Shown here piece by piece: positions 33,665 through 47,549 of a stretch of 64,000 nucleotides of DNA (within the stretch, counting starts at the first letter, position 1; each line of letters starts with the position of its first letter). The stretch is from Candidatus Micrarchaeota archaeon. GTDB taxonomy: Archaea; Micrarchaeota; Micrarchaeia; Anstonellales; Bilamarchaeaceae. The stretch spans positions 3,622 through 67,621 of the forward strand of contig JAHJDH010000033.1 in NCBI GenBank assembly GCA_018812625.1, read 5' to 3'. The notes below the pieces were generated by a model, which saw only the letters and a program-made list of their open reading frames with translations, made no database searches and was not told the origin of the DNA. The translations under genes were made by a program, and so were the position numbers.

Positions 33665-33814
33665 CCAAACACCCCAATATAATTATGTAAAATAGTTCTT
33701 TTAACCTTACGTTTTAACATAAATTGACATAAATAGTTCCAAACGAGATATGAATAGTTTAAAAACTAACTGTTCAAATATCACTTTACACTTTATTGGG
33801 CCCGTAGCTCAGCA

Positions 33815-33863
33815 AGAAAACTTTTGGAAAAAGTTTTATCAAAACCCAGAAGTTATCCTGAAC
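33815..33863 (+). other. tRNA-Ile intron 1 (non-canonical, D-loop)
   Basis: Central 4-bp helix TCAG (33809-12) / CTGA (33858-61) is flanked by 3-nt bulges CAA and ACC. The inner helix is GAAAACTTTT / AGAAGTTATC. The outer helix is weak (relaxed BHB). Boundaries could shift by 1-2 nt. Confidence 0.65.
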
Positions 33864-33885
33864 CGGTTAGAGCGTTCGACTGATA

Positions 33886-33937
33886 CGAGCTTTTGGAAAA
33901 AGCTCGACCAAAACTTGCTTCCTAAAAGTTCTCGGTC
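33886..33937 (+). other. tRNA-Ile intron 2 (canonical 37/38 position)
   Basis: The anticodon stem TTCGA/TCGAA continues into the central helix CTGA (33880-83) / TCGG (33932-35). It is flanked by bulges TAC and TCA, followed by the helix GAGC / GTTC. This is a full hBHBh' motif. Confidence 0.8.
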
Positions 33938-33960
33938 ATCGAAAGGTCACGAGTTCAAAT

Positions 33961-33983
33961 CTCGCCGGGCCCATTTTCTTATT
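33961..33983. repeat. attL: 23-bp direct repeat covering the 3' end of tRNA-Ile
   Basis: ctcgccgggcccattttcttatt is identical to 47527-47549. Confidence 0.85.
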
Positions 33984-34012
33984 TTAAGGTCCAGTGTTAC
34001 GAGTTTTGTGTT

Positions 34013-34930
34013 GTGAAAAATACGTCAGAGTTCTTACCATACACGGAACCAGTTTTGGAAGTCCAAAACACAATATCTGATTTTGGCGGTCTATGGGCCC
34101 ATCTGAAATCAGATACCAAGCCAACAAGGCGCGAAACAAAACTAATGTGGCCAGAAGCAAAATTAATTTTGGAGTTCCTGGGCCGACATCTCCCCAAACA
34201 AAGATTGATCCGTGCACTGACGGTACTGAGCGACCATCGCAAGCGCAGATTCCTGCGCAGCAGGATTCCAAAATACGGATCTTTGAACAAAGGATTCACG
34301 GAAGATGAGCTTGTAAAGTTCCTGAATTGCGTGGATGATCATAAGGCTCTGCTACTATTCACTTTTCAGGCGGTTTTGGGCCTTCGGATCAGTGAAGCAG
34401 TGCAAATTCACGTCAAAGACATCAATCTCAAAACCAGGGAACTGAAGATCCACAATGTCAAGTGCGATCGTCTTGACGTTCTGCCAATCCCCCCACAACT
34501 TTTTGAACAAACAATAAAATACATCAGCGACTGGGAGGATGAAATCGTCAGGCACGAAGGCTACCTTTTCTACAGCGAGTTCTATCCAAGAAACAACAAG
34601 ACTCCCCATATCCGTACAGACTATGCAAGAGTATACTTCACCAAAGCACTAAACAAAGCCAAGCTTGACGAAACCTACGCAATTTCAACCGGTTCACAGC
34701 CCAAGCTCATGCACCGCCTCACCACTCACAGCTTGCGTCACTATGCCATCACTAACTTCGCAAAGAAAAACAACGGAAATGTCATGCTGACAAGCAAATT
34801 CGCACGCCATAGGAAGATCAATACGACGATGGTTTATGTCTACACCCAAAAAGAAGAACTTTACAGAAGCATAGATCTACTTCAGGATGGAACATTGGAA
34901 AAAATCCGGAAACTACAAGAGATCGAATGA
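34013..34930 (+). CDS. tyrosine recombinase / integrase
   Basis: Box I LGLRISEAVQI, box II HSLRHYAITNF, and catalytic Tyr region TTMVYVYT. GTG start; the true start is uncertain. Confidence 0.88.
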   Translation: MKNTSEFLPYTEPVLEVQNTISDFGGLWAHLKSDTKPTRRETKLMWPEAKLILEFLGRHLPKQRLIRALTVLSDHRKRRFLRSRIPKYGSLNKGFTEDELVKFLNCVDDHKALLLFTFQAVLGLRISEAVQIHVKDINLKTRELKIHNVKCDRLDVLPIPPQLFEQTIKYISDWEDEIVRHEGYLFYSEFYPRNNKTPHIRTDYARVYFTKALNKAKLDETYAISTGSQPKLMHRLTTHSLRHYAITNFAKKNNGNVMLTSKFARHRKINTTMVYVYTQKEELYRSIDLLQDGTLEKIRKLQEIE

Positions 34931-47442: not shown

Positions 47443-47526
47443 AAAACTGCAAAACTCGGAACAGAAAACTGCAGAACTCACGACGTAAAACCCACAACTC
47501 TAAACCCTAAACTCAAAACTGAATTG
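47443..47526. repeat. about four imperfect 22-nt tandem units (AAAAC..AACTC..) abutting attR
   Basis: Units start at 47443, 47465, 47487 and 47509. The first two share 16 of 22 positions (AAAACTGCA-AACTC--AC). Confidence 0.5.
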
Positions 47527-47549
47527 CTCGCCGGGCCCATTTTCTTATT
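47527..47549. repeat. attR: second copy of the 23-bp direct repeat (displaced tRNA-Ile 3' fragment)
   Basis: ctcgccgggcccattttcttatt is identical to 33961-33983. Confidence 0.85.

Follow-up and report, generated by a model that had tools for sequence, protein, structure and literature searches.

The window analysed here, a 64,000-nucleotide stretch of a contig from a tiny, uncultured Candidatus Micrarchaeota archaeon, carries at 33798–33973 a tRNA-Ile(GAU) gene split by two introns, and its sequence, read directly, is as given in the original prediction. Deletion of the two introns restores a 75-nt cloverleaf, GGGCCCGTAGCTCAGCACGGTTAGAGCGTTCGACTGATAATCGAAAGGTCACGAGTTCAAATCTCGCCGGGCCCA, with the predicted anticodon loop CTGATAA, and ARAGORN calls the joined exons as tRNA-Ile(gat) (Table 1). 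In this call the spliced tRNA has a 7-bp acceptor stem, a 4-bp D-stem, the D-loop AGCACGGUUA, the anticodon loop CUGAUAA, a variable loop of 5 nt, the T-loop UUCAAAU and discriminator A. CCA is not encoded in exon 3. The T-rich trailer that follows is, to judge from its letters, likely an archaeal oligo-T termination signal; oligo-T tracts are generally known to act in archaeal transcription termination.

Table 1 Features of the split tRNA-Ile(GAU) gene and of the adjoining integrated element (window positions)
Feature	Position	Strand	Description
Exon 1	33798..33814	+	Acceptor 5' strand, nt 8-9, D-stem 5' strand, D-loop A14-A17; ARAGORN; BLAST 1-17
Intron 1, 49 nt	33815..33863	+	D-loop, between mature nt 17 and 18 (Sprinzl 17/17a); relaxed bulge-helix-bulge (BHB)
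Module in intron 1	33821..33845	+	Core CTTTTGGAAAAAG between AAAA/TTTT, then ATCAAAAC
Exon 2	33864..33885	+	Remainder of D-loop (C G18 G19 U U A21), D-stem 3' strand, G26, anticodon stem 5' strand, C32-A37 (anticodon GAU); ARAGORN, BLAST
Intron 2, 52 nt	33886..33937	+	Canonical position 37/38; strict hBHBh'
Module in intron 2	33890..33914	+	Same 13-nt core between CGAG/CTCG, then ACCAAAAC
Exon 3	33938..33973	+	A38, anticodon stem 3' strand, variable loop, T-arm (A49-C65 mismatch), acceptor 3' strand, A73; ARAGORN, BLAST
attL, 23-bp core CTCGCCGGGCCCATTTTCTTATT	33961..33983	+	T-stem 3' strand, acceptor 3' strand, A73, 10 nt of trailer
T-rich trailer TTTTCTTATTTT	33974..33985	+	Read from sequence
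Tyrosine integrase	34013..34930	+	305-aa ORF; Pfam Phage_integrase PF00589, E = 7.6e-17
attR, second 23-bp copy	47527..47549	+	Direct repeat

The unspliced locus escapes both tRNA finders. ARAGORN makes no call there, with or without intron mode, and Rfam reports no tRNA in a 361-nt slice of the locus even at E ≤ 10; the sole tRNA call in the whole window is a tRNA-Leu(UAG), found by ARAGORN and, as the same single tRNA, by Rfam at the gathering threshold. When the spliced sequence was compared by BLAST with the full assembly (1.27 Mb, 43 contigs, ~85% complete), the three exons matched collinearly at one place, and no other tRNA-Ile(GAU), nor anything else resembling a tRNA-Ile, was detected. 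The intron-less second copy that, according to the original prediction, would mark this gene as a pseudogene was therefore not found in the assembly. Since the sole gene is invisible to ARAGORN and Rfam, standard annotation would report the essential tRNA-Ile(GAU) as missing. An 88-aa ORF (33750–34016, plus strand) crosses the whole gene; this is an artefact, which a gene caller could label as a hypothetical protein if the tRNA were missed.

Intron 2 forms a strict 3-4-3 hBHBh' motif. The central helix H, 33880–33883 (CUGA; C32–A35) with 33932–33935 (UCGG), has 4/4 pairs including one G-U, and is flanked by the bulges 33884–33886 (UA/C, the stroke marking the splice junction) and 33936–33938 (UC/A). 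The inner helix (33887–33896 with 33922–33931) contains 8 uninterrupted base pairs, GAGCUUUU/AAAAGUUC, the 5-bp anticodon stem (33875–33879 with 33939–33943) serves as outer helix, and the cut falls at 37/38, so that BHB scoring bears out the textbook motif that had been proposed. At the level of sequence, the junction is fixed by comparison with intron-less orthologues, which read CTGATAATCGAA across it. When intron 1 alone was deleted, the intron 2 called by ARAGORN was displaced by one nucleotide in the 3' direction (loop CTGATAC), a placement contradicted by these orthologues and rejected here.

The motif of intron 1 is relaxed, with the same 3-4-3 arrangement and a long inner helix. Its central helix, 33809–33812 (UCAG; U12–G15) with 33858–33861 (CUGA), consists of 4/4 Watson-Crick pairs between the bulges 33813–33815 (CA/A) and 33862–33864 (AC/C); the inner helix (33816–33827 with 33846–33857) comprises 12 pairs with one A-A mismatch, and the outer helix is a single base pair, or 4 bp (U8–C11/G69–A72) with a 4-nt 3' bulge. 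BHB scoring and folding thus uphold the proposal of a D-loop BHB with a weak outer helix, while the exact junction is predicted from BHB geometry and is placed by orthologue comparison to within 1 nt. The register UCAG/CUGA with symmetric 3-nt bulges obtains the best BHB score in all 12 orthologues that carry the intron; these keep all of the central helix (CUGA, once CUGG), and shifted registers retain 2–3 of the 4 central pairs. This makes it improbable that the gene is functional with an intron 1 junction off by one nucleotide, i.e., with the D-loop AGCAAGGUUA and not AGCACGGUUA, or that the motif is a 3-4-4 with U8–C11/G69–A72 as outer helix. Such variants are favoured by three observations: U, C or A precedes G18G19 in intron-less orthologues, which leaves the nucleotide unfixed by comparison; the constrained fold prefers the 4-nt 3' bulge with the 4-bp outer helix; and broad-specificity endonucleases accept bulges of 1–4 nt (PMC3239211). 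With a 4-nt bulge, however, the cut predicted from the central helix stays the same.

The unconstrained minimum free energy (MFE) fold (−58.3 kcal/mol, z = −3.95) contains both inner helices and draws neither canonical BHB exactly: the central helix of intron 2 is off by one register, and at intron 1 C16–A17 are paired instead of U12–G15. Enforcing both BHBs gives −55.3 kcal/mol, a cost of 3.0 kcal/mol, and enforcing that of intron 1 alone gives a fold 1.1 kcal/mol above the MFE; formation of the intron 1 BHB competes with the D-stem. Between species the inner helices covary, i.e., their sequence changes and their pairing is kept.

Structure by itself is not decisive for a gene of this kind. 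A genome-wide brute-force search, in which up to two BHB-like segments were cut out between candidate acceptor/T-arm pairs, returned 137 'cloverleaves', most of them spurious; the tRNA-Ile locus scored 35, spurious hits up to ~33 and one other real two-intron tRNA 36. The finder was dropped, both for taking a census of tRNAs and for testing significance. What settles the reality of the introns is their presence and absence in orthologues. The 176-nt precursor was searched in 60 related genomes, and orthologues were found in most of the 36 genomes of the same genus, adjoining mre11 as in the window. Among these syntenic genes, both introns are present at 11 loci, the anticodon-loop intron alone at 11 and the D-loop intron alone at four, and one gene (G008) has neither. 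The gaps in the orthologues lie at the predicted intron edges, to within 1 nt for intron 1: G008 and G024 lack exactly query positions 89–140, which are the 52 nt of intron 2, this intron is absent also at L026 and L027, and ten species are without the D-loop intron. Genes that lack the D-loop intron have GCTCAG-CCTGGTG/CCAGGCTA-GAGC, or a close variant, at this place. The intron-less G008 gene matches the Rfam tRNA model with 76.1 bits (E = 7e-16), and the spliced product is identical to it at 68/75 positions, which agrees with the ARAGORN call of the spliced sequence.

In two species, G014 and G023 (L031 and L032), the D-loop of the tRNA-Ile gene is interrupted two nucleotides further upstream, at 15/16, by another intron. 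This intron ends in GAGCAAC, a copy in appearance of the 3' strand of the D-stem, and has the central helix GCUC/GAGC; the same ending recurs where D-loops of other tRNAs of the window's genome, among them Met and Lys, are split by introns.

The first pair of the T-stem is an A-C mismatch (A49-C65), as noted in the original prediction. The mismatch is real and is common to all five species of the window's clade, while elsewhere in the genus the 49-65 pair covaries (G-C, A-U, C-G). Because those five species include one without an integrated element, the mismatch is a stable feature; an origin in integration was ruled out, as G002 has the mismatch and no integrase.

Two proteins in the assembly match PF01974. 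One, EndA (G000:C22), comprises 389 aa with N-terminal and catalytic domains (Pfam), in the three-unit, single-chain layout of ~390 aa, and aligns end to end with the ARMAN-2 epsilon2 endonuclease (PDB 4FZ2/9W2K; E = 2.6e-131; residues 5–389 with 8–387 of 4FZ2_A, 441 bits). The catalytic residues Y233/H248/K279 align with Y236/H251/K282 of the ARMAN-2 enzyme, and Y157/K158 with Y160/K161 of its specificity loop (the ARMAN-specific loop, ASL); the K228/R275/W384 equivalents, the bulge-stabilising Lys, Arg and Trp, are kept as well. The roles of these residues are described for ARMAN-2 (PMC12397907). On this sequence evidence EndA is classed as a complete orthologue of the epsilon2 splicing endonuclease from ARMAN-2, the enzyme type that had been suggested for a genome with relaxed BHB motifs. 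The ARMAN-2 enzyme cuts strict as well as relaxed BHB motifs (PMC3239211), and by analogy with that orthologue EndA is predicted to act as a homodimer that cleaves relaxed motifs. The ligase RtcB (G000:C14; E = 1.6e-167) is encoded in the same genome.

The second, weak PF01974 match is a 162-aa EndA-like protein outside the window (G000:C26:25187-25420; L002:1450-1935, minus strand). Its catalytic Tyr is replaced by His and its catalytic His by Lys, so this paralogue is presumably non-catalytic.

Taken together, the locus is very probably a functional tRNA-Ile(GAU) gene, the sole one found in the assembly, with two BHB introns of one family that EndA would cut and with exons that RtcB would join. 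The precursor of ~176 nt would be transcribed with both introns, and each intron with its flanking exon would fold into a bulge-helix-bulge. EndA would cut each strand two nucleotides past the 3' end of its part of the 4-bp central helix and, whatever the order of the two splicing events, would release the 49-nt D-loop intron and the 52-nt intron at 37/38; RtcB would then join the three exons, and CCA would be added after transcription.

The alternative is a tRNA pseudogene, or a gene killed by the insertion of two small repeats and left unspliced, AUU/AUC being decoded by a copy outside the incomplete assembly. With 85% of the genome covered such a copy could have been missed, and the inserts do belong to a multi-copy repeat family, described below, that also occurs outside BHB contexts, beside tRNA-Gly and tRNA-Ser. 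The exons are nevertheless 75/75 identical in the three nearest species (G001, G002 and G026), including 17/17 in exon 1, while intron 1 is identical at 36–49 of 49 positions and intron 2 at 37–50 of 52–56; exons 2 and 3 are identical (22/22 and 36/36) in four related species. Five species of the clade have both introns in this gene, and compensatory changes maintain the BHB geometry. The mismatched T-stem, which might suggest decay, is common to these five species, the required enzymes, EndA and RtcB, are intact and no second copy was found. A dead gene is on this evidence highly improbable.

The tRNA-Ile gene was also proposed as the integration target of a mobile element, and the borders of this element support that proposal. 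A 23-bp direct repeat of the tRNA 3' end marks both borders (attL and attR in Table 1); a repeat search gave the positions 33960–33982 and 47526–47548 with 0 and 1 mismatch, 0 being expected by chance, and a tyrosine integrase gene adjoins attL. The integrated element is 13.6 kb long. The closest relative, G002, was searched for an empty site of the element: it is homologous to the window as far as 33985, at attL, and the downstream sequence does not resume after attR within the window. Integrases ~60% identical adjoin tRNA-Ile in G001 and G033, and the wider set of homologues next to tRNA-Ile(GAU), at L005 (G001), L019 (G033) and L012 (G024), is ~60–70% identical; since these homologues lie beside the same tRNA in other species of the genus, tRNA-Ile(GAU) is a recurrent integration hotspot. 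In the overlap of the att core with the tRNA 3' end and in the position of the integrase next to attL, the element resembles SSV-type and related archaeal elements with tRNA-targeting tyrosine integrases. It differs in that the target is an intron-split tRNA; as the core lies wholly inside exon 3, the introns give the site no protection and do not hinder its use.

The two introns are homologous along their length. Their alignment has 34 identical positions and a score of 42, compared with 20.4 ± 3.9 for shuffled sequences, and none of 2000 shuffles scored as high. They share a module, N4-CTTTT-NNN-AAAAG-N4' followed by (A/C)(C/T)CAAAAC, which in this genome is found in the introns of at least 10 other tRNA genes, in D-, anticodon- and T-loops. 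Module-bearing introns occur in the genes for Ile (twice), Asn, Thr, Glu, Val-GAC, Val-CAC (D- and T-loop), Arg-GCG, Arg-UCU, Met and others, and similar introns thus appear across tRNA species and positions within one genome, as in the Thermoproteales. RNAalifold on a MAFFT alignment of the modules found no structure, because length variation misaligned the module stems, and direct pair counting was used in its place. By this count, the outer four pairs of the stem occur in 20 complementary forms around a fixed 13-nt core among 32 distinct copies from this genome and the fetched loci of relatives. Longer introns (that of Arg-GCG in this genome, L015 in a relative and many of those in G285) have two copies that face each other, a 5' one in which CCAAAAC follows the hairpin and a mirrored 3' one in which GUUUUGG precedes it; short members of the family keep one end only.

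A pattern search of 401 genomes of the phylum gave 12 copies in the present genome, 0–40 per genome of the same genus and 14–51 in two other genera of the family, compared with ~0 in most other families; a reversed-pattern control was near zero. An Mre11 tree had too little resolution for a count of intron gains and losses. It contains three supported pairs of sisters with unlike intron states, and its well-supported branches, taken alone, do not require more than one change.

Several copies lie at other places in the genome, outside the window. The tRNA-Val(CAC) gene (G000:C25:5600-5860, minus strand) has module introns in both its D-loop and its T-loop. A perfect copy, CCGCCTTTTAGAAAAAGGCGGCCCAAAAC, identical to that in the Val-CAC T-loop intron, directly follows tRNA-Gly(GCC) (G000:C23:41151-41300), where a segment of 73 nt lies between direct repeats of 9 nt from the tRNA 3' end (GGTCGCATT); this has the look of an insertion that duplicated its target, or of what is left of an att site. 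At tRNA-Ser(CGA) (G000:C26:34100-34270), 18 nt around the 5' end of the gene (CACGCAGGAGTAGCGAAG) are duplicated 72 nt upstream, and each repeat copy is preceded by a hairpin, the upstream one being the intron module in mirror orientation. The copies beside tRNA-Gly (9-nt repeat) and tRNA-Ser (18-nt repeat) were rejected as BHB introns, as no BHB forms at any register. In G285, a genome of a related genus with 51 module copies, tandem modules lie just 3' of an archaeal SRP RNA match (L106:1500-1923, on G285:C2, minus strand); this match is short and below threshold (76.6 bits, 262 nt against a model of 317 positions), and the SRP RNA gene of G285 may be interrupted by an element of the intron family.

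Two introns are apparent in at least nine other tRNA genes of the assembly (Met-CAU, Glu-CUC, Arg-UCU, Val-GAC, Thr-GGU, Lys-CUU, one on C3 and others). As ARAGORN and Rfam combined detect no more than ~21–26 tRNAs, the tRNA annotation of this genome will have serious gaps.

Introns 1 and 2 are diverged copies of one clade-specific family and most likely arose through copying of an intron from one tRNA site to another, as has been proposed for the Thermoproteales. Convergence is the competing account: the likeness would then reflect a structural constraint, the sequence being the one that best builds an inner helix for the endonuclease, and not common descent by copying. In family members of 40–43 nt the CCAAAAC box is indeed the 3' strand of the BHB inner helix, paired with UUUUGG of the hairpin core, so that part of the conservation of the module is structural. 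Constraint of this kind does not explain why many introns at the same sites are without the module and still keep the BHB, why the module is limited to a few genera when the epsilon2 enzyme occurs far more widely in the Micrarchaeota, or why identical 29-mers stand at sites as unrelated as the Val-CAC T-loop intron and the 3' flank of tRNA-Gly. The invariance of the 13-nt core, while the flanking stem covaries through 20 versions, points the same way, and we consider convergence unlikely.

Descent by copying leads to a further reading, which we put forward tentatively and rate at somewhat below an even chance. Both introns would be copies of a clade-specific, self-propagating BHB-intron element that spreads at the DNA level and is tolerated through its removal by the epsilon2 endonuclease. 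Such an element would consist of the hairpin around CUUUU-NNN-AAAAG and the CCAAAAC/GUUUUGG box, placed at either or both intron ends in mirror orientation, and in a few genera of Micrarchaeota it would have colonised most tRNA genes, at their D-, anticodon- and T-loops, and apparently some other RNA loci as well.

Heavy interruption of tRNA genes has precedents, the closest in Candidatus Micrarchaeum acidiphilum (ARMAN-2/ARMAN-1; Fujishima 2011, PMC3239211; Hirata 2012, PMC3488258; Miyata 2025, PMC12397907). The tRNAs of ARMAN-2 are heavily disrupted by introns, sometimes twice per gene (PMC3239211; PMC4033280). The organism of the window belongs to another family and genus of Micrarchaeota, and whereas the named ARMAN-2 examples are T-loop introns (53/54, 59/60), the non-canonical intron described here lies in the D-loop at 17/18. 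The hairpin/CCAAAAC module of the window's clade is, in addition, essentially absent from most other Micrarchaeota families sampled. Two-intron, protein-spliced tRNAs are therefore already known for the lineage, and that both introns belong to one repeat family is the more interesting point.

The Thermoproteales, an unrelated phylum, share with the present genome many tRNAs with 2–3 introns, very similar introns across tRNAs and positions and an endonuclease of broad specificity, and their intron families have been read as the result of transposition (PMC4090602). Their enzyme is (alpha-beta)2, however, compared with epsilon2 here, and the unit shared among introns of the window's clade is a short, defined module (covarying hairpin, CUUUU-NNN-AAAAG core and CCAAAAC box) that is found at either intron end and mirrored. 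The tRNA genes of Asgard archaea are heavily interrupted as well (bioRxiv 10.64898/2026.10.13.758758); there, as here, introns are missed by standard tools, lie often in an enlarged D-loop and are revealed by compact orthologues. The Asgard introns form almost no families across tRNA types (bioRxiv 10.64898/2026.10.13.758758), whereas in the present genome such families are shared.

The locus is a clean, comparatively validated case of a double intron, in the D-loop and at 37/38, from a second branch of the Micrarchaeota with an intact epsilon2 endonuclease. Within one genus, the same tRNA gene occurs with zero, one (either) or two introns, and the module is limited to a few genera; this four-state snapshot is of the kind that reviewers of the field have asked for with respect to the gain and spread of archaeal tRNA introns. 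If the introns are indeed self-propagating elements, they would constitute, next to the Thermoproteales, a second and independent case of tRNA-intron transposition, and a better-defined one, and the living four-state polymorphisms at single sites would allow gains and losses to be reconstructed.
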